A model generated the notes under the pieces. The model saw only the letters and a program-made list of their open reading frames with translations, had not been told where the DNA came from and did not search any database. The position numbers and the translations under genes were made by a program. From an uncultured Thermoplasmatales archaeon (GTDB lineage: Archaea; Thermoplasmatota; E2; UBA202; DSCA01), in assembly GCA_964514975.1 (NCBI GenBank), contig CAZESS010000009.1:944-64943 (forward strand): a DNA stretch of 64,000 bases. Direction: 5' to 3'. Below, piece by piece: positions 2 to 32,959 of this stretch (positions within the stretch are counted from its first letter, which is position 1; every line of letters starts with the position of its first letter).

Positions 2-1444
2 CTGCTGTATCCCTTCTCTACCGCTCATAGCAGCATCTCCGGAACCAGCCCGGTCAGTGGTGCAACCTATGACGGCGCTCCGGCTGATTTCTATTTCTTC
101 GATACCTCTTCGCTCCGTCTGGGCCTGTTCATGGGAAACCCCTCTGGAGACGGCCTGATGGACGAGACCGATATTGGAACCATCAACGACATAATATGGT
201 ATAACCCGCAAGGTGGTCTTACGCCCTGGGGCTATGCTGCGGATGTCGTTGCCAACCCTGCGGAGGATCCATACGTGGAGGACGAGGTCTTCGGCAACTA
301 TCCCGGGGCCGGCGTCCTCTGGGTGACCCCCGAGATGTCCTACACGAAAAACCCGCCTGAATCAGATTTCGGCAACGACACCACCCCCGGCTTCGGCTGG
401 GAGGTCCGCCGCTACGTGCTCCATCAGACCGACATCGCGCAGCCCTCAGTCAGATGGCGCCAGGATTCCATTGCGGACAACACCACCGTGAACACCAGCG
501 AAAACATCACGTTCAAATGGGAGGTCAACGGCTGCATGGTCGTTGATAACACCTCCATCCGGTGGGGCACCGACCCCGACCCCGTCAACAACTCGGATTT
601 CTCGGCCGCGCCGCATACCGAGCATGCAGGCGACTATGTCGGCGGCAGCGGATGGGACAACGCCAGCGACGGCGTGAAAGCGGGGACGGTGTACACGGAG
701 AACATCACCATCGACACGCCGGGAACGTATTACTTCGTGGCGAAGGCCAAGGTAGACCAGATATATAACCAAACCCTGGCTCCATATGAATACGGTGACA
801 CCCCCTATCTCCGGCTGATCAAGGAACGGGTCAATGCATCCTACTACGAGGTCATCAACGGCACTGACGGCCTCGAGGAAATAAACGGCCAGTTCTGGTG
901 GCACAGCCCCGTCGTCAAGGTCGTGGTGGGGTCGTCGACGGTATCCAACGAGTACAATTTATCTGCGGGCTGGAATCTTGTCACGGTGCCCGTCGCCAAT
1001 GATTTCAATGCGAGCTCGCTCGGGCAGAGCATGCCGAACTGTGAGATCGTGGCCTACTGGAACGCCTCGGCGGGGATGTTTGAGTCCTATGTCGTGGGTG
1101 TGACACCTGGCTCTGGTTTTCCGATACGGGACGGCGTTGGCTACTTTGTGTATGCGAACGCATCATTATCGTTTTCGGTGACGGGCGCTCCATTGTCGAG
1201 CGTCGCCGTTGACCTGTACCAGGGATGGAACACGATCGGCTGGTTTGATGCTGATGCGACGAATGCATCTTCGCTGGCCTCGTCGGTGCCAAATTGTAGC
1301 ATCGCCGCCTACTGGGATGCGTCGAGCGGCACGTTTGAGTCCTACACGGTCGGTGTGACGCCGCCGCCGGGCTTTGCTGTCAGCAGGGGCATGGGTGTGT
1401 TCGTCTATGTCACCTCGCCGGGCACGTGGACCGGGCAGGGATAG
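2..1444 (+). CDS. Secreted, glycosylation-rich surface protein, 5' partial (reading frame open to the window edge); C-terminal tandem ~75-aa GWN-type domains
   Basis: The frame stays open upstream of the first ATG (131) to position 2. It has more than 15 N-x-S/T sequons. The C-terminus carries two copies of a domain (GWNLVTVP...NCEIVAYWNASAGMFESYVVGVTP...GVGYFVY / GWNTIGWF...NCSIAAYWDASSGTFESYTVGVTPP...GMGVFVYV). The same pair occurs at the end of the next ORF. Confidence 0.6.
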   Translation: MLYPFSTAHSSISGTSPVSGATYDGAPADFYFFDTSSLRLGLFMGNPSGDGLMDETDIGTINDIIWYNPQGGLTPWGYAADVVANPAEDPYVEDEVFGNYPGAGVLWVTPEMSYTKNPPESDFGNDTTPGFGWEVRRYVLHQTDIAQPSVRWRQDSIADNTTVNTSENITFKWEVNGCMVVDNTSIRWGTDPDPVNNSDFSAAPHTEHAGDYVGGSGWDNASDGVKAGTVYTENITIDTPGTYYFVAKAKVDQIYNQTLAPYEYGDTPYLRLIKERVNASYYEVINGTDGLEEINGQFWWHSPVVKVVVGSSTVSNEYNLSAGWNLVTVPVANDFNASSLGQSMPNCEIVAYWNASAGMFESYVVGVTPGSGFPIRDGVGYFVYANASLSFSVTGAPLSSVAVDLYQGWNTIGWFDADATNASSLASSVPNCSIAAYWDASSGTFESYTVGVTPPPGFAVSRGMGVFVYVTSPGTWTGQG

Positions 1445-1575
1445 CCCGGGCGTGGCCGCGTCATCGAGTGCAGTAAGGTTGACCCTAGCCGTTCCTGGCA
1501 CGTGAGCGTAGGTGCTGTGAGGCATGCTAGCAATATATACATAAGCTATAAATAGGTAATTTTGCTCTGTGAATC

Positions 1576-4500
1576 ATGAGGTCATCTACTTTTTTAAAGG
1601 TGGCGGCGGTATGTGTGACTGGCCTGCTGATGGTTGCTGCCGTACCCGTGACGGTATACGGCGAAGCCGAGGAGAACAACCCACATAGAACACTGCTTCC
1701 ATCATCCAGTGAACTACGGACGCTGACATACGTGATGTCGTTCAAGGAGCCGGCGCTGTCGACGCGATCCATCGAAGGGCAGATGTTCTCTGCCATCAGG
1801 ATGGATGGCTGCATGAACGTCGGTGAGACTGGCGCTCCGGCGCTGCCGGTTTACACCACGAATATCCTGTTGCCGCAGGGGGCCACGTTTGACGGGGTGC
1901 ATGTTGCGGGGACGCGGAGCATGGTGAACACGCGTGACATCAACCTGGCAGCCACGCCGATCATGCCGCAGCAGCCCATGGTGCCCATTGGAAGCGGTGA
2001 CGCTGAGTTCACGATAAACCAGGAGGCGTATGATGCTGATGAGCCGGTGCGTGACAGCCGGTATCGGGTGGTTGGCGTCGAGCATAGCCGTGGCTACACG
2101 ATATTGACGTTGAACGTGTTTCCGGTTGAGTATGTGCCGGCGGGCGGGATGTTGCATTATCATCCCCGGATGGTTATCGACGTGTCGGTGGAGCAGACCG
2201 GCGAAACCAATCGGTTTTATCGGAACAATCCGGATGACAGGGCATGGGTGGAAAACCTGGTGCTCAACCCCGGTATGACGGATACCTACACGATGCGTTC
2301 GTCCCGCAGCTATCCGGGCGGTATCTGCGACCCGGCTGACAGCTACGACTACGTCATCATCACCACCACGCATAATGGCCTGGATGGCTGGGCGACGGAC
2401 AGCACGACGCCCTACAACTGGACGAGCCTGATGGACAAGCATCAAACAGAAAACGGGCTCGCATGTACCCTGGGGACAATGCAGGATATCAATGCCGAGC
2501 CGGCATACTGGAACACGACGGCTCTGTTTAACGACACCGCGGCGCACATCAGGGAGTTCTGCCGCGACGCCTACCAGGACTGGGGCATCCAGTACGTGCT
2601 CGTCGGCGGCGATGACGAATGGATACCCCGCCGGGAGCTCCACTACGGTACGGGATGGACCGAGGAAGACATCGACTCCGACCTGTACTGGAGCAACCTC
2701 GACAAGACATTCAACGCGGACCAGGACAACGAATGGGGCGAATACGAGGGAGACCTCGGCTTCGACCTATTCTCCGAGCTTTTCATCGGATCGCTTTCAT
2801 GCGACGAGCCACAGGATGTCTCCAACTGGATGAAAAAGAGCTTCTATTATGCGGATGCGGTGGATAAGGATTATCTCGACAATGCGGCATTCTACGGCGG
2901 CAACACCGGCTGGGCATGCCAGGGCGACGACTTCATCGACTACAGCGCCATCCAGGGCACCGACGACTGGCTCGGCCCAAGCCCCCACGCCGACGGCCCC
3001 TATCCATCCTGGCTGGGCTTCCAGTACGGGTTCGAAACATGGAACACACACAACCCGGTGCAGCAGTTCAATCTCTCCGTGAAATGGACGGCTGAGCCGC
3101 CGAATCCCGGCTGGCAGGGCGGCAGCGAAACCGCGGCTATCAATGGTCTCAAAAATGATATCAGCAACGACCAGGTGACATTGATATCCGGTATCGCCCA
3201 TGCCGACTCCGGCATGTCGCTGGACGTGTATGACAGCAGCTGGGAATCTGATTATCACAACACCAAGCCGTTTTTCATCCATGACTATGGCTGCCACTGT
3301 GGCGACATGGACGCCGCCGACGACGGCGTATTGCATTCGATGCTGTTTCATTCTGACACGGAGCTTGCCTTCGCCTGCGTCTACAACACGGGCTACGGCT
3401 GGGGGAACTCCGACGGCACAAACTCGAGCAGCGCCCTGCAACAAAAAAGCTTCTGGGATTACATGTTCGACACCACGAACCATTCGGGCTCCACGATAAA
3501 CTGGCAGCTCGGCAAGGCCCACGCCTGGTCCAAGGACTACATGGCCCCGACCATCAACTGGACGACATCCGGTTCCCCCCAGGGATGGCGCGGTGTCATC
3601 CAGTGCTGCCTGCTATTTGGTGACCCGGCGCAGCGTATCAAGCCCCCGTTGCAGCCCGACCACGAAATCATCGTCAACAATCTCGACATCCCCGCAACCG
3701 TTCCGCACGGCCAAACACAGTATGTCGAAGCAAACGTGGTCAACGCCGGGAAGAACAACGAGAGCAACCTGCAGGTCAACTTCACCGTCAACGGTACCAT
3801 TGTCAACAGCACCACCATTAGCTCGCTGCCGAAGCTGACGTCGCAGCAGGTGAGCTTTGCCTGGAACCCCGACAACGGGACATACGTGGTGGGCATCGAG
3901 GTCGACGTGGTGCCCGGCGAGAATTTCACCTTCAACAACCAGATGAACAAAACAGTTGACGTGATACCGGTTCCCGACATATGGACGTCGCCGCCCGCCC
4001 TCGACTTCTATGTTGACACCGGGGACACCGACACGGCTGTCCTCACCATAGGAAACGAGGCACACGCCGAGGCAGATCTCACCTTCAACGCATCAATCTC
4101 CGGCGTCAGCGGCTGGCTGTCCGTTGCTCCGATGAGCGGCACCGTGCCGGTCGGCACCTCTATGCCCCTCGATGTCACCGTCGACGCCACCGGCATGGCC
4201 GAGGGCACATACCTGGACACCATCATCATCACCTGTAACGACCTCGACGAACCCGCGCTCGCCATCCCGGTCACGCTGTACGTCACCTACCCCAACGACG
4301 TCGGCGTCACACACATTAATAACCCGGGCAACCCGGACTGGGCCGGCAGCACCATCGTCAATGCGACGGTGTTCAACTTCGGCAGCCAGGACCAGGCAGC
4401 CGTCCCGGTCACCTGCACCATTTACGAGGGCATCCTGGAATACACCGAGGACTTCGAGCTCGACGACGGCGGATACACCCACAGCCAGGGTTCCGGCCCC

Positions 4501-5685
4501 GGAAGTATCGACGACTGGGAATGGGGCACGCCGACATCGGGGCCATACAGCGCACATTCCGGCGTCAACGTATGGGCGACACACATCGCGGGAGACCACA
4601 GCAACAGCGCAGACAGCGTGCTGAACTCGGTCAGCGTCGACCTGAGCCTGTACCCCCTGCCCGAGCTCCGGTTCTGGCACTGGGCGGATGTCACCCAGTA
4701 TGACTGTGGCAACGTGAAGATTTCGACGGATGGCGGCAGCACATGGAATATTCTCTACCCTCAGGGAGGATACACGGGCACGGCGACGAGCGGCAACCAG
4801 GGCATCCCCGGTGAGCCGGCTTTCACAACAAACACTGCAGGGTGGGAAGAGGTCATCTTCGATTTAGATGCCTACGCCAGCGATACCGTCATTATCCGGT
4901 GGCATTTCGGGTCGACCTCCGGCACCACGCACCCCGGATGGTATCTAGACGATGTAACGATACGATCAGGACTGGCTCCGCTGGACACGGGTGACATTAT
5001 CTACAGCGCCACCGAAACGATATCCGTGGATTCATACACGGCATCCTACGCCCTGTTTACACCTCCATGGGATGCAGCCGTTGGAAACTACACGATACAG
5101 GTCGGTACACAGCTCCCCGGTGACCAGGACAACGGCAACAACCAAACCGCGACCACCGTACAAATAATGGAGCCGCCCATCACCACGGTCGACTTCCAAC
5201 TGTCCGAGGGCTGGAATCTCATATCCATTCCCATAGAAAACAACTACACCGCCGGCACGCTGGGTGAAAACATTTCAGGCTGCAGCATTGTCAGCCGATG
5301 GAACGCAGGTACATTCGAATCCTTTGTGGTCGGCATATCCTCACCATCGGCGGATTTCCCCGTACAAAACGGGGTGGGATACTTCGCCTATGTAGACAAT
5401 GCCACTGAGTTTAACGTAACAGGGCAACCGATACCCAGCGTATCCGTCCCGCTCTACCAGGGCTGGAACATCATCGGATGGTACAAGGGCGCATCTACCA
5501 TGGCGAGCAGCCTCGGCGGCAGCATAGCCAATTGTAGCATCGTCAGCAAATGGAACGCCGCCACCAGTACTTTTGCCTCCTACCTCGTGGGCGTGTCACC
5601 GCCAGCCATGGACTTCCTCATCATCCAGGGAGACGGTGTGTTCCTCTACGTCGACGAAAACGGCACCTGGCGCGGAGAAGGATAA
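1576..5685 (+). CDS. Large secreted peptidase C25 (gingipain)-like protein with CARDB-like adhesion domains and the C-terminal tandem GWN-type domains (1369 aa)
   Basis: It has a Sec signal peptide (MRSSTFLKVAAVCVTGLLMVAAVPVTVYG). The segment YDYVIITT...AAHIREFCRDAYQDWGIQYVLVGGDDEWIP resembles the C25 propeptide/catalytic region. CARDB-like blocks are present (VEANVVNAGKNNESNLQVNFTVNG...). The tandem C-terminal domain is shared with ORF 2..1444. N-glycosylation sequons are abundant. Confidence 0.6.
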   Translation: MRSSTFLKVAAVCVTGLLMVAAVPVTVYGEAEENNPHRTLLPSSSELRTLTYVMSFKEPALSTRSIEGQMFSAIRMDGCMNVGETGAPALPVYTTNILLPQGATFDGVHVAGTRSMVNTRDINLAATPIMPQQPMVPIGSGDAEFTINQEAYDADEPVRDSRYRVVGVEHSRGYTILTLNVFPVEYVPAGGMLHYHPRMVIDVSVEQTGETNRFYRNNPDDRAWVENLVLNPGMTDTYTMRSSRSYPGGICDPADSYDYVIITTTHNGLDGWATDSTTPYNWTSLMDKHQTENGLACTLGTMQDINAEPAYWNTTALFNDTAAHIREFCRDAYQDWGIQYVLVGGDDEWIPRRELHYGTGWTEEDIDSDLYWSNLDKTFNADQDNEWGEYEGDLGFDLFSELFIGSLSCDEPQDVSNWMKKSFYYADAVDKDYLDNAAFYGGNTGWACQGDDFIDYSAIQGTDDWLGPSPHADGPYPSWLGFQYGFETWNTHNPVQQFNLSVKWTAEPPNPGWQGGSETAAINGLKNDISNDQVTLISGIAHADSGMSLDVYDSSWESDYHNTKPFFIHDYGCHCGDMDAADDGVLHSMLFHSDTELAFACVYNTGYGWGNSDGTNSSSALQQKSFWDYMFDTTNHSGSTINWQLGKAHAWSKDYMAPTINWTTSGSPQGWRGVIQCCLLFGDPAQRIKPPLQPDHEIIVNNLDIPATVPHGQTQYVEANVVNAGKNNESNLQVNFTVNGTIVNSTTISSLPKLTSQQVSFAWNPDNGTYVVGIEVDVVPGENFTFNNQMNKTVDVIPVPDIWTSPPALDFYVDTGDTDTAVLTIGNEAHAEADLTFNASISGVSGWLSVAPMSGTVPVGTSMPLDVTVDATGMAEGTYLDTIIITCNDLDEPALAIPVTLYVTYPNDVGVTHINNPGNPDWAGSTIVNATVFNFGSQDQAAVPVTCTIYEGILEYTEDFELDDGGYTHSQGSGPGSIDDWEWGTPTSGPYSAHSGVNVWATHIAGDHSNSADSVLNSVSVDLSLYPLPELRFWHWADVTQYDCGNVKISTDGGSTWNILYPQGGYTGTATSGNQGIPGEPAFTTNTAGWEEVIFDLDAYASDTVIIRWHFGSTSGTTHPGWYLDDVTIRSGLAPLDTGDIIYSATETISVDSYTASYALFTPPWDAAVGNYTIQVGTQLPGDQDNGNNQTATTVQIMEPPITTVDFQLSEGWNLISIPIENNYTAGTLGENISGCSIVSRWNAGTFESFVVGISSPSADFPVQNGVGYFAYVDNATEFNVTGQPIPSVSVPLYQGWNIIGWYKGASTMASSLGGSIANCSIVSKWNAATSTFASYLVGVSPPAMDFLIIQGDGVFLYVDENGTWRGEG

Positions 5686-5845
5686 GCACCCCTCTTTCCC
5701 CTTTTTTATTCTATTCAGTTCGTCATTACGATTGATACCTGTTCCCGTTATTTTGTAAACTATCATGGTTTCGGTGAGATTGTGGCCCCGCGACTGGAAT
5801 GGAGATATCGGAATAATTAGTGATATACTATTTTGCAAATGCGAA

Positions 5846-5859
5846 ATATATAAATATAG
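5846..5859 (+). promoter_or_regulatory. Candidate archaeal TATA box (atatataaatata) flanked by an imperfect inverted repeat, upstream of the pilin-like operon
   Basis: It is an AT-rich element about 30 nt upstream of ATG 5888. TTGCAAATGC (5833-5842) and GCATTTGTAA (5866-5875) form a 9/10 inverted repeat around it. Confidence 0.4.
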
Positions 5860-5887: not shown

Positions 5888-6346
5888 ATGCATTGCTTTT
5901 TGGAAGATCAGCGAGGCATTGAAGGCCTGCCCATGAAGCTGATCATCATCGTGGTGATTGCCGGGGCCGTGCTGGCGGCGGTGCTGATGATGATACCCGA
6001 GGGAACCGGTACATTAAACGCCGAATGCATTTCTGTCGATGGCAACAGCGGACATCTCAAGACGGTATCTGCCGCATCGGGAGAGATATCGGTCGGCAGC
6101 TTTGACGTCACCGTACAAGTAACCGACGGCGACGGCGACCCGGTCGCCGATGCAGATGTTACGCTCATCGGAGCGAACGGAGCGGGAGCCGGCAAAACCG
6201 GGGGAGACGGAGAGGTAACGGTTACGGTACAAAATGCCAGACTGGACACCAACGAAGAAAAGGACTATGTGAGCGTCGAGGTGACCGCATCAGGGCACCA
6301 CAGCTACGAAGAAGAGCAGTTTGTCGTGATTGCCAGAACCGGATAA
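5888..6346 (+). CDS. Type IV pilin-like protein with class III signal peptide (DQRG|IEGLPMKLIIIVVIAGAVLAAVLMMI) and a beta-rich Gly/Asp/Thr-rich domain
   Basis: It has the D-x-R-G motif followed by a hydrophobic helix. The globular part is rich in D/G/T/V (GDGDPVADADVTLIGANGAGAGKTGGDGEVTVTV). It is the first gene of a co-directional operon. Confidence 0.55.
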   Translation: MHCFLEDQRGIEGLPMKLIIIVVIAGAVLAAVLMMIPEGTGTLNAECISVDGNSGHLKTVSAASGEISVGSFDVTVQVTDGDGDPVADADVTLIGANGAGAGKTGGDGEVTVTVQNARLDTNEEKDYVSVEVTASGHHSYEEEQFVVIARTG

Positions 6347-6349
6347 CCC

Positions 6350-6769
6350 ATGCCCACCTTTTTATCCGATGCCCGGGGCGTGCTCGGTCTGCCGCTGCGA
6401 ATGGTCGTCGCGTTGATAATAGGCGGCGCGGCGCTCGGCACGGTCACCTATTACACGGCGATGCACTGCTGGACGCCTGGACACCTCAAAGTGGCCTATG
6501 AACCAGACGTGGTGGAAGAAGGACCCACGTCGATTACGGTCACAGTCAACGATGCCGACGGCACCCCGGTGCAGGATGCCTCCGTGGCCGTAACGGGGCT
6601 TGGGGCAGGCGGGGGCAACACGACGAACGCCGAGGGCACAGCAGTGATCAGGGTCACATCTCAACTTCCGGACGGTCGACGCGAAGGATATCTTGATATC
6701 ATGGTAACGGCGACCGGCTGCTACAAACAATACAGCCAGGATGACGCGATAAAAGTTGTGAAAGGATAA
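6350..6769 (+). CDS. Type IV pilin-like protein, paralog of the previous gene (DARG|VLGLPLRMVVALIIGGAALGTV)
   Basis: It has the same N-terminal architecture and the same D/G/T-rich domain (TVNDADGTPVQDASVAVTGLGAGGGNTTNAEGTAVIRV). A 3-nt gap separates it from the upstream gene. Confidence 0.55.
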   Translation: MPTFLSDARGVLGLPLRMVVALIIGGAALGTVTYYTAMHCWTPGHLKVAYEPDVVEEGPTSITVTVNDADGTPVQDASVAVTGLGAGGGNTTNAEGTAVIRVTSQLPDGRREGYLDIMVTATGCYKQYSQDDAIKVVKG

Positions 6770-6770
6770 C

Positions 6771-7415
6771 ATGGACATCGGTTTCGGGAAAAAGGAAAAT
6801 CGGGCGGACGACAGGCAAGACATGGACATCGGCGATATGCGCGGGTCGCTGCGTAAACTGGAGCAAACGATCGAAAGCCTGAGCACACGCCTCGACGCCG
6901 TCGAGCGGCGGCTATCAGACATGGATTTCGAAGGACCGGTTGTGATGGACACCGAAAACAGGCCATCGCCACACCCCAGCATCCGGCAGCTATCCAAAAA
7001 AATAAACAGTGAGATAACGCAGCTGCAGCAGGAACTACAGGAGATAAAACGGGCACAGGCAGATACACACCAACCAGGCAAGGCAGGCCAGCAGTCGAGC
7101 GCATCGCCGACCGTGATCCCCGCAGGAAAAAACAACCGGGGAGGCAGCGATGCGCACAGAAAAAAAGTGGCGGAGCTTGAACGAAAAATGGAAGTGCTGG
7201 AAGGACAAAAGGCAACCGTTCAGGTCGGGCGGATAGAGATACCTCTCGAAATCTCTGGTATCGTCGGCGGGATGCTGGCGTTTCTCATTGCAGCGCTGCT
7301 ATTTCAGGGACATAGAGGCCTGGTTGCATCTCCTGCATTTGTCGCATCTCTCGGCGTTTTACTGGTTATCGCAGCCGCATGTAAAACCTATCTTGTCAAC
7401 GTGGCACAACGATGA
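6771..7415 (+). CDS. Coiled-coil protein with two C-terminal transmembrane helices (tail-anchored), operon member
   Basis: The central part is heptad-like and charged (LRKLEQTIESLSTRLDAVERRLSDM...QLQQELQEIKRAQ). The C-terminus is hydrophobic (IVGGMLAFLIAALLF...LGVLLVIAAA). A 1-nt gap separates it from the upstream gene. Confidence 0.5.
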   Translation: MDIGFGKKENRADDRQDMDIGDMRGSLRKLEQTIESLSTRLDAVERRLSDMDFEGPVVMDTENRPSPHPSIRQLSKKINSEITQLQQELQEIKRAQADTHQPGKAGQQSSASPTVIPAGKNNRGGSDAHRKKVAELERKMEVLEGQKATVQVGRIEIPLEISGIVGGMLAFLIAALLFQGHRGLVASPAFVASLGVLLVIAAACKTYLVNVAQR

Positions 7416-7858
7416 CGAACGATATATGGCCGGATGAGACAGGCGCGTTTGAGCTCCCGGTGCAGTACACGGTCGCCATCGTGGCTGCCGCCGTTGCCGT
7501 CGCGCTCGTCAGCATTGCCGGCTATCACCTATGGCAGGACATGCAGACGAGGCATGCGGTACGAGAAGTGGAACGCATCGTAGATATGGCAACCATGATG
7601 TATGCCAACGCAGATGTGGGCACCGCTCGAACCATTAGTGTTGACTTTCCCGAGGGAATGAAAAAAGCGGGCTTTGGCTCCTTCGACCCGCGAAGCGCGA
7701 ACCGCTACTACGTGGTGATGAATTGGGGTGAAAACAACACTTTTTATGCCCGAAATACAAACTTCAGCAGCGGAACCGTCCTCCACGACGGCGTCGACAG
7801 GGTCAGGCTGAAGCTGATAGATGAAGGGGGAAAACATGTTTGTGTCGAGGCTGCTTGA
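7412..7858 (+). CDS. Type IV pilin-like protein (DETG|AFELPVQYTVAIVAAAVAVALVSIAG)
   Basis: It has the class III-like motif plus an N-terminal hydrophobic helix. It overlaps the upstream gene by 4 nt. Confidence 0.5.
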   Translation: MTNDIWPDETGAFELPVQYTVAIVAAAVAVALVSIAGYHLWQDMQTRHAVREVERIVDMATMMYANADVGTARTISVDFPEGMKKAGFGSFDPRSANRYYVVMNWGENNTFYARNTNFSSGTVLHDGVDRVRLKLIDEGGKHVCVEAA

Positions 7859-8432
7859 CGACGAGCGAGGGGCAATCGCCTGGCTCCTCAGCCAGCTCGG
7901 GTTGCTGCTGGCGGCAGGCGTTCTCCTCGGGGCAATCGCCGGTCTGACCTTTTATAGCGATTGGGAAAAACGGGCGGAGGCAAAAAACATCGCATCCGGC
8001 TTTGCCACCGCCATTGAATCCGTTGCCCTGAAAGAGTTTCCAGAAAAAACGACCTACAGGTTTCCGCGCAAGGAGTACCACTACACTGTCGCCCTTTCAA
8101 CCTGCTATGTTGCCGTTAGCAGACCGGGAGGACTTGTCAACGACGACATCATTGCACGGGCGGCGCTGCTCATCCGTCCATGGCCACGTCCGCCAATGGC
8201 AAATGGCACCGGAGCATCCGGAGTGTACACCTTTCTCGGAGGGGGATTCAGGCGCGAAACAAGCATTCCGCGACATGCCTTGAACAGCGTGTTCAACCAT
8301 ACGCGGACGGCGCTTGCATCCCATCCGTATGCCATCGACGTGGACAGGCCCGTGTACATCGAAAAAATATTTATATACACCGGAGAGGGCGCCCATACAA
8401 TCAGGGAGGAATATGTCATCGTTTATCAATGA
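7821..8432 (+). CDS. Type IV pilin-like protein (DERG|AIAWLLSQLGLLLAAGVLLGAIAG)
   Basis: It has the same D-x-R-G and hydrophobic-helix N-terminus. It overlaps the upstream gene; the start could instead be M6 at 7836. Confidence 0.45.
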   Translation: MKGENMFVSRLLDDERGAIAWLLSQLGLLLAAGVLLGAIAGLTFYSDWEKRAEAKNIASGFATAIESVALKEFPEKTTYRFPRKEYHYTVALSTCYVAVSRPGGLVNDDIIARAALLIRPWPRPPMANGTGASGVYTFLGGGFRRETSIPRHALNSVFNHTRTALASHPYAIDVDRPVYIEKIFIYTGEGAHTIREEYVIVYQ

Positions 8433-8901
8433 TAGCCGGGGGATTTCGGAGGAATTCACCTCGCTGCCGGCCCTGGTGGTCGTAATGATAGGGTTTGCGC
8501 TGTTTTTCGCGCTCATCGCCGGCGTGTATCACTCCCATACCGAAAAAATGGAACGCATTGACAGCTACAGGACGGCGAATTTCGTCCTTAAAAGGATAGC
8601 CATGGAAAACGGTTCTCTGGCCCGGGATGGCGTGATGCGGGAGAGCGGCGTGGTCGACAACGACACGTTTCACCGGCTCACGGTGGACAGCCAGCGTATA
8701 CGTGAGGTGGTACAGGAAAGCGATGTCGTCGCCGTGGAGTTTGGGCTGCGGCTGCGTCATGAAAAATCGTGCCATCCGATGAAAACACCCAATATACCCT
8801 CGGACATGGATCGGGTTGCTGCCAGCATGGAGGTACCGGTGTATCTCAATGCGGCCGAGACCGTTCCCGGAGAGCTCACCGTTATCGTGTGGGAGGCATA
8901 A
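8413..8901 (+). CDS. Type IV pilin-like protein (DSRG|ISEEFTSLPALVVVMIGFALFFALIAG)
   Basis: It has the class III-like N-terminus. The start was chosen at an internal ATG of ORF 8314..8901, which overlaps the upstream gene by 20 nt. Confidence 0.45.
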   Translation: MSSFINDSRGISEEFTSLPALVVVMIGFALFFALIAGVYHSHTEKMERIDSYRTANFVLKRIAMENGSLARDGVMRESGVVDNDTFHRLTVDSQRIREVVQESDVVAVEFGLRLRHEKSCHPMKTPNIPSDMDRVAASMEVPVYLNAAETVPGELTVIVWEA

Positions 8902-8904
8902 TCC

Positions 8905-10143
8905 ATGATGCGGCAGTTGAGAACGTTTTTGTCAGACCGGTGCGGCATCTCAGCCGTACAGGACGCCGTTCTGTTCTGTGTAATGGTATCCATTGCCGGT
9001 GCCATCCTGATGCCGGCGTTTACCGGCACCATCCCGCGGGACACCCATGTGGAAAAGGAACGGGAGGAAAAAGCAGATGAGGTTTTACACCAGTTGATGG
9101 TATGCCGGGTTGATAAAACCGTTCATTTGAACGCGAAACCCGTGCTGGACGCACTGGAGGACAACACGGACATGGACATAACCCAGGGATTTCTTGGACC
9201 GGTCGTCAACGGACTGCTGCGGAGGGAGCAACGCCATCTCACCTACGCCGACCTGTGCACGGAGAGCGTGGCCTGCCAGTTCAAAGTCCTCGGGAAACGC
9301 ATCAACATTTTAACGTATAATTGTACGAACGCAGTAAAAAGAGAGATACAAGCGTTTTTATCGAATCAGCTCGGTGACGAATATCTCTACAATTTCACGG
9401 TCCAATGGCACCCCATCCCGGGATTCGATTTCGGCGGAGATTTTTCTGTCGGTCATTCCCGTCCCCCGGATGCCGACGTGTACGCCGCTACCACATACGC
9501 GGTGATGCCACCGTCGCTTTTTACCAGAGACATCGGTTTCTCCATCAGCAACATCCGCCGTTACATAGCATCGAACATTGAACACGTGGTTAACAGGTAC
9601 CGGAACGGAACCATGTCAAAGGAGCAATTGACCGGGCATCTCGAAACGGTTTCGCTCGAGGTATTTAACAAAACGATGTGGGAGGGATTCGATATCGACC
9701 ACGACGGCGATTTCGACGGGCCAATGGAGACGAAAAGCCTCGTCGACATCGTGCTTGACTACGTGTTTGGAGAGATAGGCAGTGCTCTCCAGCTCGTGTT
9801 TGACGAATCCATGCGCATGGTCACCGACATGATTGCGAACGGAATAGACAGGAACTTTGCCGTCCTTTCATCCGAGGCGCTCAAAAACAGCATTGCTGGC
9901 ATTTCCCCAACAGTCGACGCCGGAGACACCGTCGACGGCATGCGGGATACCATAACAGCACATGTGAAGGAAACGCTCAGACAGTATATCAACCAAACAT
10001 TTCAACACCGCATACAGGCAATGGTGGAGGACATCATACATGCTGGGGAAACCGCAGATATCATCACCGAGATATTGAACTGCCTTTTCCGGCACGTTGA
10101 CTTTCGCAGAGCCCGGCTGTCACTTTCAATATGGAGAGCATAA
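8905..10143 (+). CDS. Pilin-like N-terminus (DRCG|ISAVQDAVLFCVMVSIAGAIL) fused to a 380-aa domain of unknown fold
   Basis: The N-terminal motif is conserved with its neighbours. The rest has no recognisable family and is rich in D/E. Confidence 0.45.
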   Translation: MMRQLRTFLSDRCGISAVQDAVLFCVMVSIAGAILMPAFTGTIPRDTHVEKEREEKADEVLHQLMVCRVDKTVHLNAKPVLDALEDNTDMDITQGFLGPVVNGLLRREQRHLTYADLCTESVACQFKVLGKRINILTYNCTNAVKREIQAFLSNQLGDEYLYNFTVQWHPIPGFDFGGDFSVGHSRPPDADVYAATTYAVMPPSLFTRDIGFSISNIRRYIASNIEHVVNRYRNGTMSKEQLTGHLETVSLEVFNKTMWEGFDIDHDGDFDGPMETKSLVDIVLDYVFGEIGSALQLVFDESMRMVTDMIANGIDRNFAVLSSEALKNSIAGISPTVDAGDTVDGMRDTITAHVKETLRQYINQTFQHRIQAMVEDIIHAGETADIITEILNCLFRHVDFRRARLSLSIWRA

Positions 10144-10147
10144 AAAA

Positions 10148-13132
10148 ATGAAGTTCATCAATGACGAACGCGGACGCGTCCCCTTCGCGGTTCTCGGCAT
10201 ATTTTTGATCGTCGGCAGCGCGGTCACTTCGGGTATCATCACAAACCTTGAAAGAGAACGCACAAAAAATATCGCAGATACGTTGAAGTCATCCTCAATA
10301 AAAAACATGCTGAAAAACGCGGAGGCCGATATTTCACGAATGCTCTCCTATAGCTGTCTGCAGGCGTTCAAAAAAATAGGTCGGCATCCCGTGACATATT
10401 CCAATGTTTCGACGGCGGCAGCCGCCATGTATGCTGATTTCGATGGAGATGGCGAGCACCATGACGATGTGGGCGACACGGTAAAAGGCGAACGGGAGGT
10501 TATGGCGTTTAACAAAAACTGGGCCCGGAACATGGCCAGGGTGTATTTCAACACCTATCTCAACAGAACCTTTGAAGGATTCCTGTACCGGGACAATGGC
10601 TACTCCGTCGCTGTCTATGACCCCGATGGGGATGGGGCTGTCGACGACTGGAGAAATATAACATTTCGGCGCGTGGGCATGGAGTTGGAGCGCTCGGTTG
10701 CAGTTGACCTGTTGATTTCGGAGGACACCCGTGAATATTCCGTCTACTGGGTGGCATCAATACCTGACCTGTCTTTGAAGATCCGGAACCTGTCATCGGG
10801 AAAATACTGGCGTACAACGGCCAATATCAGCTGTCTGGTTCCCTCCCGCCTGCCGCTGCTTATGGAGCTGACCTACACATACCGGGACAGCATCAACGGG
10901 CTTCTCTCGCCGCTGATGGGACTCGTATCGGTCATCGGCGAGGGGTACACGGAGGCCCGGTCGCTCCTTCAGTATGCGGGCAAATACGACCTGGTCAAAA
11001 ATGTCGTGGATAACAGGTGGCTCCAGTATCTGACGAATGCCGGCCTGGTGGGCATACAATACCTCGTTTTTAACAGCGTCGACCCCATGATGGTGGCGCA
11101 GCTTGCGACACAGGTGAACGACCTCGTCGCCCGGGGTACCCGGTATGGCACATCCGCCACGTCGGATGTCCTCACCGGCATGGCTTCCCTGCCCATTGTC
11201 GCCAGTGAAGATGTGTTCAAAACGTTCGGCAGCGAAAACGACAGCGAAGCCAGGCGGACGCTCCGCAATACGACGGGGAGCCAGCACATATCACGGGCCA
11301 ATGTTTCCCTGTGGAACATGTCCAGAGCCATCCTCAACCAGACCCGGACCACCTACTATTATTACAACGACAGCACCGGTCTAAAACCCCAGAACATATG
11401 GCGGGGGTATATGTTCACGGACCAGGGATACCGGTACCGGCTTTCCTCCCCCGATGGAGACCTGGACACCGATACCGATGCACCCCTGCCGGGCTTCCGC
11501 AGGCAGTATACAGACCGCATAAACCGGTCGGTGCTGCAGGAGATACACAAAAAGGTCCGTGACACCTACAGCGCCAGTTTTTCCACCGAGCTGTCAAAAA
11601 ACGTGCTCAACGTATCATACACGGGATGCAGCCCGTCTGACCCCGACTGGAGGCATGTCGGAAGCACGGGTTCCTGGGACCTAGTCCAGAGCAGCTTCAG
11701 AAACAGCACGACGGGACGGCGCCTTCACGACGGCGAACTCCCATCCGGTTTTCCCGCCACGCCCTATCGGGAAACATGGATGCTCCGATGGAAAAGAAAC
11801 GAGACATGGGAGCACTACGAGGTGGTCAACCACACCGAGGCAGGAAATCCGGTATACGGATGGAAGGAGTATCGGGATGTCGTCCATTCCGTTGACGAAC
11901 GAGCCACGTTTGCTCTCCACGCCGATGCATACCCCCGTGATGTCAAACAGGTGATGCATGCCACGTCGGTGTTCGGCGCGCCGCCACACCAACGGCATAC
12001 CGATGACAACCTGGCGTTTCTCCTGCAGACATATGTCAACGACGGGTTCACCGATGCACGAGACCGGTATACCGATACCGCACAGAACCACGGAAAAGGA
12101 TACAACGGAACAGTTGACTCCGCACACTGGAACAACAACACTGCCGACGGCGACACCACGGGCTATGACAGGATACGATGGCTCATCGGCCGACCCGACA
12201 GCATGGGAGCAGCGGCCAGAGCGCTCTACAATATCACAAACATGATACGAGCAGACCGGGCGGCATACAGCACCATCTCCGGCCGGTATTATTCCCCGGA
12301 TGACCCGACGGTGAACCTCTCCCTCGTCGAGCGGGAACGACATGCATTGCTGCAGGAGTTCCAACGGCGCAAAAACAGCTACGTCAACCAGCAGCATTAC
12401 ATGGAGGGCGGAAAATATACGAGCGCAGCAGCCAAGGCGGTCGTCGAGATGCGGAGATGGTTCGTTGAACAGATAGCGGAACGGCTCAATACGTCCCACA
12501 CGCAATATGCCGAGGACGCGATCAACGAGAGAGTCAGCAGCCGGGATACCGGACATTTCAACGGCTACCAGACCTATCAAAACACCATCGATATGTATAA
12601 AGATGCGGTCGACCAGATGACACATGTCCAGTTCGGCAGCCAGATGCGGCTGGAGGGCAACTGGACGGAAAATGTGACCCTGACCGTCGGCACAACCCCG
12701 GACTATTTTGATTTCAACGACCCGCCGACCGGGGAAGAAAACTGGGAGTTCAACGTGAAAAACATCTGTCTTTTCGGCCCGACCGGGTTGCCGTTGCTTC
12801 CAACACCGGTCACTCCATGGGTTGTCACGATAAACAGCTGGTACATCCATGTCGACGGCCACTGGGATACGTTCATGGTGCTCGACAGCAGCGACGAAAC
12901 ACATCCAGACCCCTTGCTGGGGCACAGCGGGCAGACATGCATGCGGACAGGCCCCGAGCGTGTGAGAGACAGCGTCTGCCACCAGGATAATCCATGCCTT
13001 GGGTTTTGCACCCCGCTGACATTTGGGTTCGACACAATGAGCCTGGGTATTGTTCCGTCAGGGAAATTGCCGATTGGCGACCTGGATACTCCTGTCGAGT
13101 CAGACAGCGTCGGAAATGGAGGCAAACGATGA
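10148..13132 (+). CDS. Giant (994 aa) pilin-like protein (DERG|RVPFAVLGIFLIVGSAVTSGII) with more than 20 N-glycosylation sequons and a Cys-rich C-terminus
   Basis: The start is at MKFINDERG, immediately after the upstream stop. There are many N-x-S/T sequons. The C-terminal 60 aa hold 6 Cys (GQTCMRTG...CHQDNPCLGFC). No known domain is recognised. Confidence 0.5.
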   Translation: MKFINDERGRVPFAVLGIFLIVGSAVTSGIITNLERERTKNIADTLKSSSIKNMLKNAEADISRMLSYSCLQAFKKIGRHPVTYSNVSTAAAAMYADFDGDGEHHDDVGDTVKGEREVMAFNKNWARNMARVYFNTYLNRTFEGFLYRDNGYSVAVYDPDGDGAVDDWRNITFRRVGMELERSVAVDLLISEDTREYSVYWVASIPDLSLKIRNLSSGKYWRTTANISCLVPSRLPLLMELTYTYRDSINGLLSPLMGLVSVIGEGYTEARSLLQYAGKYDLVKNVVDNRWLQYLTNAGLVGIQYLVFNSVDPMMVAQLATQVNDLVARGTRYGTSATSDVLTGMASLPIVASEDVFKTFGSENDSEARRTLRNTTGSQHISRANVSLWNMSRAILNQTRTTYYYYNDSTGLKPQNIWRGYMFTDQGYRYRLSSPDGDLDTDTDAPLPGFRRQYTDRINRSVLQEIHKKVRDTYSASFSTELSKNVLNVSYTGCSPSDPDWRHVGSTGSWDLVQSSFRNSTTGRRLHDGELPSGFPATPYRETWMLRWKRNETWEHYEVVNHTEAGNPVYGWKEYRDVVHSVDERATFALHADAYPRDVKQVMHATSVFGAPPHQRHTDDNLAFLLQTYVNDGFTDARDRYTDTAQNHGKGYNGTVDSAHWNNNTADGDTTGYDRIRWLIGRPDSMGAAARALYNITNMIRADRAAYSTISGRYYSPDDPTVNLSLVERERHALLQEFQRRKNSYVNQQHYMEGGKYTSAAAKAVVEMRRWFVEQIAERLNTSHTQYAEDAINERVSSRDTGHFNGYQTYQNTIDMYKDAVDQMTHVQFGSQMRLEGNWTENVTLTVGTTPDYFDFNDPPTGEENWEFNVKNICLFGPTGLPLLPTPVTPWVVTINSWYIHVDGHWDTFMVLDSSDETHPDPLLGHSGQTCMRTGPERVRDSVCHQDNPCLGFCTPLTFGFDTMSLGIVPSGKLPIGDLDTPVESDSVGNGGKR

Positions 13133-13767
13133 AAAGCAAAGCACTCTGCCTCGGAATCGTATGCGCGTTGCTGGTGCTTGCAGTGATACCCCTGGCACAT
13201 GCCGGGGAGTGCAAATATGGAACAGTAGAGGCATGGGCCAGAACGCTCAACGAGGATGGTGGATGGGGCGAATGGAAAAATGCAACCGTCCATGAACGCC
13301 TTCAAACACATGAACCGTTCCAGGTAAAAGTCAGGGCTGCCACGAAGGTCGACTGCACAAGCGTAGACCTGTATCTAATCCGGGCGGGTACGACGGAGGC
13401 CTACGAGGTCGTGGATGGCCCCTCAGATATTTCTGGTGTCATCCCCCGGGGAGTTTTTCATGAAACATGCAATGCTTCATGGTCAAAAACGTACACCTGG
13501 ACTGTCAGGCCGACGGGTAACTGGACGAGGGGTACCGCTGTCCTGAACGTGAGAGGAGGATTTTATAGAGGTGGATACAAGAATGTTGATTTCACCGTCA
13601 TCGCGGCATACATCCAGGCGAAGGAATGGCAGGACGGCGGCGGAGATACGGCAGATAGCGGACATAACGGCGGCAGCATCCCGGGATGTGCGACAGTTGC
13701 AACAGTGGCCTCGATACTGGTCGCTCTGGCTGTATATCAGACACGGCATACAAAATGGCAGGAATAA
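13129..13767 (+). CDS. Surface protein with Sec signal peptide and a C-terminal PGF-CTERM-like anchor (SIPGCATVATVASILVALAVYQTRHTKWQE)
   Basis: The signal peptide is MKSKALCLGIVCALLVLAVIPLAHA. The C-terminus has a P-G-x motif, a hydrophobic helix and a basic tail. The start overlaps the upstream stop as ATGA. Confidence 0.5.
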   Translation: MKSKALCLGIVCALLVLAVIPLAHAGECKYGTVEAWARTLNEDGGWGEWKNATVHERLQTHEPFQVKVRAATKVDCTSVDLYLIRAGTTEAYEVVDGPSDISGVIPRGVFHETCNASWSKTYTWTVRPTGNWTRGTAVLNVRGGFYRGGYKNVDFTVIAAYIQAKEWQDGGGDTADSGHNGGSIPGCATVATVASILVALAVYQTRHTKWQE

Positions 13768-14336
13768 TAGCCGGAAAAAGGGGAGCCGCATGGATTCCCG
13801 TGCGCCTCGTCATCAGCATCGTTGTAGCAGCCGCGATTATTGCCGTCGTGTTCCTGGGGCTGCAGCAGGCAAACAAAACCTCGGCACAAAGCAAGATAGA
13901 GCAAGAATGCGACAGGCTAACCGCAACTCTTTCAACAATGGTTGCGAGCGGCGATGCCCGGAACGTAGACCTTCCACATGACCCGCGGGGAGACATGAGA
14001 ACCGTTGAACTGTCGCTGCCCGACGACACGTCATATCTCGGGCTTGGCGTGAACCCTGATGTGAATGGTGACGGCCATCTTGAGGATGGATTGACCGGCA
14101 ACGGCTCCTGCATTTTTTACCGGATGGACGGCATGAGCGAGCGGGCTATATGGGATGTCGGCGACATCAAATTCAGGAAGGGACGAAAAATCGATGGTAG
14201 ATGGGTGCTTGCACAGCCACAGCAGGGATACGTTATCAGGGGCGGCGGAAAACAGGTAATTACCTTTGAACTGGTCCAGGAATCCTCCGGCAATCGGTAT
14301 GTCCTCGTTCTGGCGCATGATGCTGTAGCCATGTAA
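13755..14336 (+). CDS. Type IV pilin-like protein (GKRG|AAWIPVRLVISIVVAAAIIAVVFLGL), last gene of the operon
   Basis: It has the class III-like N-terminus. It overlaps the upstream gene by 13 nt. A convergent tRNA gene follows it. Confidence 0.5.
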   Translation: MAGIIAGKRGAAWIPVRLVISIVVAAAIIAVVFLGLQQANKTSAQSKIEQECDRLTATLSTMVASGDARNVDLPHDPRGDMRTVELSLPDDTSYLGLGVNPDVNGDGHLEDGLTGNGSCIFYRMDGMSERAIWDVGDIKFRKGRKIDGRWVLAQPQQGYVIRGGGKQVITFELVQESSGNRYVLVLAHDAVAM

Positions 14337-16283: not shown

Positions 16284-17948
16284 ATGTCCGCAAAGTGGAG
16301 CCCTCCTGCCCGTAAAAAGGGCATGGGCGTGGCGATATGTGTTGCGCTCCTGCTATTTATCGGAATGGCCATGTATGCACCATCCGTCCGTTCCATGGCC
16401 CCCCGCCCGCTGTACGGCCACGCGTACTATGGCGACGGCACCGGCGAACCAGCGACCGGCGCGAAGGTCACCGCCGTGAACCTCGATACCTCCGAGGTGC
16501 TGCACAACAGGACGACCGTGGAGGAGGAGGGATATTATTCGTTCGACGTGGGCTACCCCGGCCCCGCCTGGGGTGATGGCACCCGGGTAAAGGTGTTCGT
16601 GAACGGAACCGACGACCGTGCGGGATGGACGGGACAGGCAACGGTCACCATTGACCCCGTTCCGCCGCAGCAAATTCCTGACATCCATCTCCAGCCGCCC
16701 CCGCCCGGCCAGCCCGTGGTGTCCGGCCCGACGACGGGACGGGAAAACACGTCCTACACGTTCACGGCGGTGGCGACAGACCCGGGCGGCTCTGAGATAT
16801 CCTATGGATGGGACTGGGATGACGACGGCGGCGTTGACGAATGGACCAGGCTCCGCCCCTCGGGTGATTCCTGCAGCGTCACGTACAGCTGGGGGAACGG
16901 TGGCAGCTACCGGATACGGGCGATCGCTCGCAACGAACACGGGGTGAACAGCACCTGGTCGGCACCGCACACCATCACCATCGGAGCGGACACCCAGCCC
17001 CCGAACACCTACATCACCGACGGTCCCGACGGCCTTATCCATGAAGGCACCGCCACATTTGGATGGAGCGGCGACGACGATGTCACCCCCACATCGGCGT
17101 TGCAGTACACCTACGTGCTCGAGGGGCATGACGCCGGCTGGAGCACCTGGACGGATGCCACCACCGTTACCTACACCGACCTGTCAAACGGGTCATATAC
17201 CTTCCGGGTCAGGGCGCGGGATGCGGCACACAACGTCGACGACGTTCCCGCCAGCCGCTCGTTCACCGTCTCACGGGATTATACCGCTCCTGCTGTCACC
17301 ATCACGCAGGGCCCCGACGGCGTCATCCATAAACGGGGCGCCCTGTTCTCTTGGCAGGGAGATGACGATGTCAGCCCGGCCGGCCAGCTCAGATACCGGT
17401 ACATGCTGGAAAACCATAGCGGATGGTCATCCTGGACGGGGCAGACGACCGCTGAGTATTCCGGGCTGCCCAACGGCACCTACACCTTCACGGTCGAAGC
17501 GACCGACACCGCCGGCAACACCGGCTCGGCAGCCCGCATGTTCACCGTCGCAGCCACGTCAAATGACACTACGCCGCCCTCGCTGACCGTGACCGCACCC
17601 ACCAATGGAGCGACCGTCAGCGGTGCCACACTCATCGAATGGCAGGCCGCCGATGCCGGGTCGGCTGTCACGGTCTCCGTCAGCTACAGCCAGGACAACG
17701 GTACCACCTGGCTTTCTCTTGCCGTCAACCTCACCGGCGAGAGCCACACATGGGATACCGGAGCGGTGGACAACGGCCCGTATCAGCTCCGGGTCATGGC
17801 CACCGACGCGGCGGGGAACTTCAACATGTCCGTCATCAACGTAACGGTGGACAACCAGCAGGACGACAATGACACTCCGGCGTTCGGAATAGCTGCCTGC
17901 CTGTCCGCAGCCATTGCAGCGCTGCTCATCAGGAAGAAAAACCATTAA
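16284..17948 (+). CDS. Cell-surface protein with a PKD domain, three Y_Y_Y-type repeats and a PGF-CTERM-like anchor (PAFGIAACLSAAIAALLIRKKNH)
   Basis: The PKD-like block is TSYTFTAVATDPGGSEISYGWDWDDDG. Three ~100-aa repeats match the Y_Y_Y pattern (LQYTYVLEGHDAGWSTW...YTFRVRARD). The C-terminus has a P-x-F motif, a hydrophobic helix and a basic tail. Confidence 0.55.
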   Translation: MSAKWSPPARKKGMGVAICVALLLFIGMAMYAPSVRSMAPRPLYGHAYYGDGTGEPATGAKVTAVNLDTSEVLHNRTTVEEEGYYSFDVGYPGPAWGDGTRVKVFVNGTDDRAGWTGQATVTIDPVPPQQIPDIHLQPPPPGQPVVSGPTTGRENTSYTFTAVATDPGGSEISYGWDWDDDGGVDEWTRLRPSGDSCSVTYSWGNGGSYRIRAIARNEHGVNSTWSAPHTITIGADTQPPNTYITDGPDGLIHEGTATFGWSGDDDVTPTSALQYTYVLEGHDAGWSTWTDATTVTYTDLSNGSYTFRVRARDAAHNVDDVPASRSFTVSRDYTAPAVTITQGPDGVIHKRGALFSWQGDDDVSPAGQLRYRYMLENHSGWSSWTGQTTAEYSGLPNGTYTFTVEATDTAGNTGSAARMFTVAATSNDTTPPSLTVTAPTNGATVSGATLIEWQAADAGSAVTVSVSYSQDNGTTWLSLAVNLTGESHTWDTGAVDNGPYQLRVMATDAAGNFNMSVINVTVDNQQDDNDTPAFGIAACLSAAIAALLIRKKNH

Positions 17949-25925: not shown

Positions 25926-28200
<2,275 letters not shown>

Positions 28201-28262
28201 ATCCGGAGGACGAAACGGCTATGCACTGTTAAAGTTTACGTTGTGTTACATCACGGTGATAC

Positions 28263-28281
28263 AAAAAAAAACAAAAAACAT
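28263..28281 (-). terminator. Oligo-T tract on the minus strand (gttttttgtttttttttg) in the 146-nt gap between the zinc-ribbon gene and the downstream SudB-like gene
   Basis: Archaeal terminators are oligo-T runs. This one lies about 70 nt downstream of the 28347 stop, and a TATA-like TTTAA element follows at 28228-28242. Confidence 0.35.
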
Positions 28282-28346
28282 GATGGAGCAGGCCGCTCCA
28301 CCGGAAAACGGGGAAAAGCGTTTTTGGGAAACAGAGCAGCCCGTGA

Positions 28347-28529: not shown

Positions 28530-28596
28530 GCATGCGTCTCCACGCGCATGGAGAAGCCGATATGCCGTGGCTGCTATTTATAGTTTTACCGCTTTG

Positions 28597-32957: not shown

Positions 32958-32959
32958 GC

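Follow-up and report, generated by a model that had tools for sequence, protein, structure and literature searches.

A tandem C-terminal module of Thermoplasmatales secreted proteins: sequence evidence for a widespread domain family with a possible surface-docking role

Two adjacent open reading frames end in the same tandem module

The subject of this work is a tandem protein module encoded in a 64,000-nucleotide (64 kb) stretch of DNA, below called the window, from an uncultured Thermoplasmatales archaeon (contig CAZESS010000009.1 of assembly GCA_964514975.1). Two consecutive open reading frames (ORFs), A (2..1444) and B (1576..5685), both have at their C-terminal end a tandem pair of one module type, each copy being 80-85 amino acids (aa) long. 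To judge from the comparisons described below, the module is a large and widespread domain family not described before. The unit is a self-contained, swappable, non-catalytic accessory that Sec-secreted enzymes and adhesin-like proteins carry at their C-terminal end. We favour, with slightly less than even confidence, the reading that it serves as a non-covalent docking or retention unit, which would hold such enzymes and adhesins on a surface component of the cell that produced them. Attachment had been proposed in the initial annotation of the window, and it is the best supported of the readings considered here.

The features on which the argument depends are listed below, with positions in the window. 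ORF A starts at the window edge and is therefore 5′-incomplete. D1 and D2 denote the first and second module copy of a pair, and scores refer to a profile hidden Markov model (HMM) built from the four copies.

2..1444, + strand: ORF A, M14-type carboxypeptidase-family C-terminal part and then the tandem module; residues 1-315 share 49-59% identity with PF00246 Peptidase_M14 proteins
947..1201, + strand: module copy A-D1, first-position subtype, with GWNLVTVP; HMM 139.9 bits, i-E 1e-42; also seen in an alignment of module copies
1202..1441, + strand: module copy A-D2, second-position subtype, with GWNTIGW; terminates in TWTGQG-stop (W-x-G-x-G motif); HMM 131.2 bits
1576..5685, + strand: ORF B, 1369 aa, signal peptide, gingipain-type propeptide, divergent C25-like region, CARDB, BACON/Ig-like and MAM-like domains and the tandem, assigned from Pfam and PDB
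5185..5439, + strand: module copy B-D1, with GWNLISIP; HMM 135.9 bits; residues 1-85 of the AlphaFold2 (AF2) model, with a predicted local distance difference test score (pLDDT) of ~98
5440..5682, + strand: module copy B-D2, with GWNIIGW; terminates in TWRGEG-stop; HMM 134.4 bits; residues 86-166 of the AF2 model

Copies at the same position are 47% (A-D1 and B-D1) and 55% (A-D2 and B-D2) identical, and D1 and D2 of one protein share 47% (A) and 43% (B) of their residues. The entire tandems align with 50% identity across 166 aa (E 1.6e-50). Outside of the module no similarity between A and B was found, the next high-scoring segment pair there having an E value of 0.5. These values and the HMM scores bear out the initial annotation in describing tandem copies of one module at the end of two otherwise different proteins. 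The domain bounds given there required correction, since 953-1215 is no multiple of three and 1216-1441 lies one base out of frame; the module size had likewise been put too low, at ~75 aa. A six-frame scan of the window with the HMM revealed no further module copy. All four copies fit the superfamily pattern, which is GWN-[LM]-[IV]-[ST]-[IV]-P for D1 and GWN-x-I-G for D2, each closing with G-x-G-[YF]-[FW]-[VI]. Every window copy has one conserved Cys, which is missing in distant members.

At identical four-fold-degenerate residues of the A and B modules, the proportion of identical third bases was 0.23 vs. 0.29 expected from composition, i.e., these sites are saturated. The resemblance of the modules is therefore old and has been kept by selection on the protein, and does not stem from recent duplication. 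Recent gene conversion as the source of the likeness between A and B was dropped as an idea because of the same saturation.

A large family placed mostly at the C-terminus

A profile of 14 single copies was compared with 1.84 billion representative proteins at E ≤ 1e-3. It matched 3331 representative protein clusters, 1182 of them at E ≤ 1e-10. The family was visible only by this exhaustive profile search, as a word-indexed homologue search gave just 6 matches with the tandem and 9 with the profile. In Pfam, NCBIfam and PDB sequences there was, even with a limit as loose as E ≤ 10, no match for the window copies or the 14 family members, in keeping with the failure of the initial annotation to recognise the domain. 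Unlike the module, PKD, CARDB and Big domains located elsewhere in the module proteins were readily detected by Pfam. The annotations of ten relatives at source describe the cargo only.

Architectures were counted in the best-scoring 155 of the 3331 matches, to which the following numbers refer. Two copies per protein were found in 147 cases, four in 6 and three in 2. The last copy ends no more than 5 residues from the C-terminus in 140 proteins (90%); among these C-terminal cases, 89 have the exact W-x-G-x-G-stop ending and 125 have W-x-G followed by at most three residues. D1 (consensus GWN-L-I-T/S-I/V-P) and D2 (consensus GWN-x-I-G-W) were separate subtypes in all 145 clean tandems, each scoring better by ~37 bits with the HMM of its own position. 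An N-terminal hydrophobic signal is present in 80 of the 109 proteins that start with Met, and the remaining ones resemble internal starts or shortened gene calls on short contigs. A C-terminal transmembrane (TM) helix, or any other membrane anchor, was seen in a single protein. The cargo comprises M28, S8, C14, C13, C25 and M14 peptidases, PKD arrays, FG-GAP propellers, NosD/beta-helix proteins and LamG (laminin-G) proteins. The unit is found chiefly in Thermoplasmata of sediments, which are known for extracellular gingipain-type, legumain-type and M28-type peptidases.

With 90% of these proteins bearing the module at the extreme C-terminus, and signal peptides on nearly all full-length relatives, the expectation of a discrete, common and position-specific module on secreted proteins is upheld. 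The absence of a Pfam match and the strong positional bias speak against a common Ig-like or PKD family found at arbitrary positions.

The nearest relative of the B module (60% identity) is P0001, encoded at 10001-10528 of locus L065. This 175-aa gene product consists of the tandem only, has no signal peptide and shows an 11-residue extension behind W-H-G-E-G; it may be a remnant or have a mis-called start.

Predicted structure of the tandem

The AF2 model of the B tandem, obtained with a 56-sequence alignment, reached a pLDDT of 97.7 and a predicted TM score (pTM) of 0.90, and a single copy was modelled with a pLDDT of 94.7. Each half consists of a beta-hairpin, a helix, a beta-hairpin, a 3-10 turn and a further beta-hairpin. 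Because the pTM is high, the model indicates that D1 and D2 would form one compact, rigid, two-lobed unit of ~165 residues. The module had been described as cysteine-containing and beta-rich, which agrees with the alignment and with this model, and a confident, compact prediction of this kind favours a special module over a generic Ig-like or PKD domain.

Foldseek gave no match in the PDB at E ≤ 1e-3; the best TM score was 0.28 for the tandem and 0.45 for the single copy, the latter with germin, a cupin. One borderline match was obtained in BFVD (E 2.5e-3, TMq 0.60); it is an uncultured marine phage protein named "putative hemin binding protein". A ubiquitin-like beta-grasp, an idea raised by the beta-beta-alpha-beta-beta-3/10-beta order and the Gly-rich end, was dropped, as no ubiquitin-like structure was among the Foldseek matches.

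Distribution and clustering of modules by genome

In a survey with one genome per species and a close four-sequence alignment as query, all close relatives came from uncultured Thermoplasmata/Thermoplasmatales of sediments and vents, except for one on a short contig (L012) binned as Planctomycetaceae. The metagenome-assembled genome (MAG) B78_G9 contains at least 10 module-bearing ORFs over 9 contigs, and HyVt-387 contains at least 4. Neighbouring module genes recur as adjacent pairs. The B orthologue adjoins an FG-GAP/PKD module protein in L005 and, in L006, a protein composed of Propeptide_C25, Peptidase_C25, a C25 Ig-like domain and the tandem; in L008 a C13-like module protein adjoins a PKD module protein.

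Weaker matches were found in Dehalococcoidales, Anaerolineae, Poribacteria, Ignavibacteria, Melioribacteraceae, Zixibacteria, KSB1, Lentisphaerae, Pacearchaeota and the cultured methanogen Methanogenium cariaci. Distant members keep the D1-then-D2 order and in most of them the pair is C-terminal. Profile-profile comparison of the module with the bacterial members gave a probability of 98.8% (E 1e-16), which identifies them as homologous. None of the 13 members tested from this wider set matched Pfam or PDB, and a tblastn search with the module through 50,697 phage records gave no match. Literature searches with the motif strings, or for a common C-terminal domain in Thermoplasmatota surface proteins, found none.

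The sole cultured carrier seen, M. cariaci JCM 10550, encodes a beta-propeller/PEGA-repeat surface protein with the distant tandem at its C-terminus (L063, 4516-6710); the gene is seemingly split by a frameshift near 5088-5097 in the draft genome.

The modules cluster by genome and not by cargo. In three B orthologues the cargo is 48-56% identical, the module just 38-44%, while modules on unrelated cargo inside one MAG are 57-74% identical. For 17 first-position domains, mean identity was 67% within and 44% between genomes, a difference reached in 0 of 5000 label permutations. In the three MAGs with at least two copies, the nearest neighbour of every module lies in the same MAG; both window copies are instead nearest to L001.

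Host proteins of the module

The visible part of A itself matched neither Pfam nor PDB. Its full-length relatives are signal-peptide M14-type carboxypeptidases of ~520 aa that end where the module of A starts, so that intact A would be a secreted carboxypeptidase-type protein of ~700 aa. The label of "giant secreted" proteins given to both ORFs consequently does not suit A, in which a signal peptide is not visible, and stands as to the signal peptide of B. The C-terminus of orthologous M14 cores is bare or extended by PKD, by Big_7 or by the tandem (the last in P0176). The module is an exchangeable accessory, separate from the enzyme proper.

In B, Pfam identified Propeptide_C25 at aa 33-212 (E 2.4e-9), CARDB at 699-788, BACON_2 at 813-884 and InhA-like_MAM at 1009-1129, and in PDB the propeptide matched the Lys-gingipain pro-domain 5mun (E 5.9e-7). 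Orthologues of B in Thermoplasmata MAGs are 48-56% identical. Public assemblies searched for an exact match to protein B yielded no record.

Possible function of the module

In the docking reading, the unit would bind, after Sec export and without a covalent bond, to something on the surface of its own cell, such as the S-layer, a surface glycan or a receptor protein. The entire set of exoenzymes would thereby be kept on or near the cell, and their products would be available for uptake. We infer that the module binds a partner, that this partner is the cell's own and that the contact is non-covalent. Clustering of modules by genome would be expected if a single, cell-specific partner had to accommodate every copy in the cell.

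Several observations weigh against docking on the producer's own surface. [quoted passage not shown] In Ignavibacterium (L022) the tandem is followed by ~110 aa and then a true Por_Secre_tail (E 1.1e-11); the KSB1 protein of L048 has the same layout, its sorting tail being identified by the NYPNPFNP motif and not by HMM. Two dockerin-like repeats, recognised by eye, stand behind the tandem in P0048 (546 aa; residues 466-546, DVNMDGQVNVLD..., DVNCDGMINILD...). P0010 (823 aa) has a signal peptide, four modules at its distal N-terminal tip, a stalk and, at the C-terminus, a TM helix and basic tail, and in a few members (L007, P0008, P0132) the module is internal and not C-terminal. The hosts of the superfamily differ greatly in envelope, which is more easily explained by a general ligand, and the architecture counts cover just the best-scoring 155 of the 3331 clusters. 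As to the genome clustering, synonymous similarity is retained between the two modules of L006 (0.64 vs. 0.28 expected) and also between those of L008. Recent intragenomic duplication or gene conversion thus contributes to the clustering in some MAGs (L006, L008), not in the window, and the clustering could stem partly from these processes instead of from co-evolution with a partner. Since it occurs beside T9SS tails, a dockerin-like tail and a TM anchor, the module is not a strictly C-terminal sorting signal and behaves like a binding unit. In a minority layout, P0016 and P0135 have four N-terminal modules right behind the signal peptide, and P0011 consists of a signal peptide and four modules with nothing else; together with P0010 these are possible scaffolds or adhesins.

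The main rival is a substrate-binding role like that of a lectin or carbohydrate-binding module (CBM), which we consider unlikely. Here the tandem would bind an external ligand (detrital polymer, extracellular polymeric substances, mineral-associated organic matter or other cells' glycans), so that released enzymes and adhesins would gather on the target, not on the producer. Such a role is consistent with the occurrence of the module beside separate anchors or export signals, with the distal modules of P0010, a layout typical of adhesins, with proteins of the P0011 type and with the spread over archaea and many bacterial phyla with unrelated envelopes. Several aromatic residues (W, F/Y) are conserved, and the small beta-rich fold shows a weak cupin/jelly-roll resemblance (TM 0.45, germin). 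However, the cargo is much broader than that of known CBMs and includes non-enzymes, and the strong preference of the module for the C-terminus, with its conserved chain end, contrasts with the flexible placement of CBMs. Clustering by genome and divergence faster than that of orthologous cargo would be unexpected for a common environmental ligand, and no similarity to CBM or lectin families was found in Pfam or PDB. It is improbable, in our view, that the tandem docks onto a scaffold in a cohesin/dockerin-like assembly, through contacts of modules with each other or with a receptor, the scaffold being either a distinct receptor or a P0010-type module protein. The N-terminal modules of P0010, P0016 and P0135, the TM anchor of P0010, the four-copy proteins (6/155) and the frequent adjacency of module genes are in line with it, as is the clustering by genome; cohesin-dockerin pairs are species-specific. 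Yet scaffold-type layouts are rare among the matches, neither the window nor the loci retrieved from MAGs rich in module genes showed a scaffold-type gene, and the AF2 predictions are of monomers and lend no support to self-association.

Little credence is given to a structural or stabilising domain that binds nothing and acts as a folding aid, protease-resistant cap or spacer, as PKD or Big_7 might. The M14-family slot is indeed filled by PKD, Big_7 or nothing, and the prediction, of very high confidence, shows a very compact domain; but a spacer needs neither an invariant D1-D2 pair, nor the last place in the chain with a W-x-G-x-G end, nor likeness within a genome across unrelated proteins. 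A sorting or processing signal comparable to the C-terminal domain (CTD) of the T9SS or to sortase substrates, cleaved or covalently attached, perhaps by a second C25/PorU-like peptidase in the window (41571-43950, - strand), is very improbable. Its extreme C-terminal place, the five conserved last residues, its presence on many secreted proteins, the clustering by genome and the co-occurrence with that secreted peptidase, which is without module, would fit. Single-membrane archaea, however, need no second export step, and Sec signals are already present; the module is N-terminal or internal in P0010, P0016 and L007 and stands upstream of real T9SS tails, and with two domains and 165 aa it exceeds known sorting signals in size by far. 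The PorU-like matches reflect general C25 homology and are far below cut-offs.

A bolder form of the docking reading has a slim probability. The tandem would be the docking half of an undescribed prokaryotic surface-display system, its receptor, possibly of the P0010 type, would co-evolve with it in each cell, and the whole would amount to a cell-bound, cellulosome-like "proteolysome". If true, this would explain how sediment Thermoplasmata keep the products of detrital protein breakdown. [quoted passage not shown] The available excerpts of these two papers name the same peptidase families as the module cargo; they do not address how exoenzymes are kept near cells with an archaeal envelope, and mention no common C-terminal domain on exoenzymes (PMC6461988, PMC9585477).

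The module marks a "tagged" exoproteome by sequence alone, and the 165-aa tandem offers a small recombinant probe for finding the partner. It also closes a gap in annotation, as at least 3300 protein clusters lack a Pfam or PDB counterpart. The role is likely to be of a familiar kind, with no unusual mechanism demonstrated; if the module only targets substrate or acts as a spacer, the gain hardly goes beyond a new domain family of some use.

Comparison with known attachment and sorting systems

The T9SS CTD, S-layer homology (SLH) domains and cohesin/dockerin had been suggested as analogues of the module. The analogies are functional only, as every membership test that we ran on them came out negative. 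The T9SS CTD (Por_Secre_tail, PF18962/TIGR04183), which occurs on gingipains of Bacteroidota, is likewise a beta-rich, extreme C-terminal tag of ~80 aa common to dozens of unrelated secreted proteins per genome, C25 peptidases included. It is, however, a single domain, whereas the module is an obligate pair of two subtypes, and the module host is an archaeon with Sec signals and without an outer membrane; archaea are not known to have a T9SS. Bacteria with a T9SS carry the module upstream of a genuine Por_Secre_tail, so that the two are separate elements. Neither the four window copies nor sets of 14 and 13 family members matched PF18962/TIGR04183 at E ≤ 10, and there was no fold match.

SLH (PF00395), CWB2, Listeria GW (PF13457) and LysM domains resemble the module as repeated, non-catalytic, mostly terminal units that hold varied secreted enzymes on the producer, and GW modules in addition are ~80 aa long, tandem and have a conserved Gly-Trp. 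Unlike these, the module gave no Pfam match at E ≤ 10 and comes from an archaeal organism. Its model has a helix and three hairpins, which no solved SH3-like, SLH or LysM structure matches, and neither SH3-like nor InlB structures, as would be expected for GW (SH3_8), were among the Foldseek matches. SLH repeats are mainly helical, ~55 aa long and usually three in number, vs. two beta-rich 80-aa units with one short helix each.

Dockerins share with the module the C-terminal docking position on many enzymes, lineage-specific sequence clusters and a possible multi-module scaffold (P0010). The module is nevertheless neither a Ca-binding helical dockerin (PF00404) nor a 9-strand cohesin jelly roll (PF00963), with no match in Pfam or Foldseek, and P0048 bears the module and a dockerin-like tail together. 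Gingipain haemagglutinin/adhesin (cleaved-adhesin) domains and CBMs are also non-catalytic and follow C25 catalytic and Ig-like domains, in the order seen in L006; no homology with them was detected, and the module differs by its fixed position and its occurrence on many non-C25 proteins.

PGF-CTERM, the archaeosortase A signal of Euryarchaeota, is another archaeal C-terminal feature on many surface proteins. It consists of a short motif, a TM helix and a basic tail, in contrast to the W-x-G-x-G end of the module, which has no hydrophobic segment. The chains of B and A end in TWRGEG and TWTGQG, a C-terminal hydrophobic stretch is present in 1/155 proteins and there was no NCBIfam match. Elsewhere in the window, a surface protein with Y_Y_Y, PKD and Big domains (16284-17948, + strand) has a tail, DTPAFGIAACLSAAIAALLIRKKNH, with a PGF-CTERM-like motif, a TM helix and a basic segment. 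Such a tail points to anchoring of the archaeosortase type in this genome; NCBIfam gave no confirmation.

The neighbouring pilin-like operon

Local signals around B and the downstream genes were read from the DNA as follows.

1576..1662, + strand: Sec-type signal peptide of B (MRSSTFLKVAAVCVTGLLMVAAVPVTVYG), read by eye without a predictor
1546..1555, + strand: TATA-box-like element ctataaatag, ~25 nt 5′ of the B start codon, a putative archaeal promoter element
5694..5714, + strand: T-rich run (ctttccccttttttattctat) directly after the B stop, resembling an archaeal terminator; putative termination site
5844..5859, + strand: TATA-like AT-rich box, ~30-40 nt 5′ of the first pilin-like gene (ATG 5888)

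B is followed by a ten-gene archaeal type-IV-pilin-like operon (5888-14336, + strand), nearly all products of which begin with D/E-x-R-G and a hydrophobic helix. Pfam assigned Big_1/DUF7382 (two small Ig-like pilin candidates), DUF7311 (twice), DUF7285, DUF7284 and DUF7286 (1011 aa), and no gene for an assembly ATPase or platform protein adjoins the operon. The idea that the module tethers cargo to a surface filament made by this operon had arisen from its place beside A and B. At L018, moreover, two pilin-like homologues are encoded upstream of the B orthologue at a distance of 5 kb, and three ORFs of the opposite strand stand between. We regard a pilus tether as extremely improbable. A, B and the operon each have a TATA-like box of their own, and a T-run stands behind B; these putative promoters and terminator point to separate transcription units. 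What is conserved next to B orthologues is a further gene with the module and not the operon, and downstream of the orthologous pair in L005 there are dCMP deaminase, M24 and SHMT genes. L018 alone has homologues of the operon, tblastn of its proteins against the other 63 loci giving no match, so that the expected co-occurrence of module and operon is not supported at the level of loci. Furthermore, the module genes of one MAG (at least 10) are dispersed across contigs, and module homologues occur in bacteria without an operon of this archaeal type.

Other observations

In Ignavibacteria, KSB1 and Melioribacteraceae, a conserved, unannotated domain with the motif ELPP-x-PP-x-G-x-FD-x-RF stands behind the tandem (L022, 7211-11089; L048, 8822-11080; L036, 8513-11476), and may be a second undescribed family. 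The type IX sorting tails of L022 and L048 stand behind this domain. The chain of the second secreted C25/PorU-like peptidase of the window (41571-43950, - strand) stops right behind the catalytic domain (…LFGDPSLKIGGYP) and carries no tandem module. Its true start is likely to be MRHHITSMFICLVLLAGILAPAIS, because the listed ORF start falls in an Arg/Ser/Cys-rich stretch that does not look coding. A functional tie between this gene and the module was considered and dropped, the PorU-like resemblance being one of general C25 homology. Finally, a redox cluster (25926-34822, - strand) comprises two GltD-like genes (Fer4_20 and Pyr_redox_2), a molybdopterin/2Fe-2S/4Fe-4S subunit and a Nuo51-like FMN subunit, a make-up that resembles a complex of the formate dehydrogenase or NAD(P)-coupled oxidoreductase kind.

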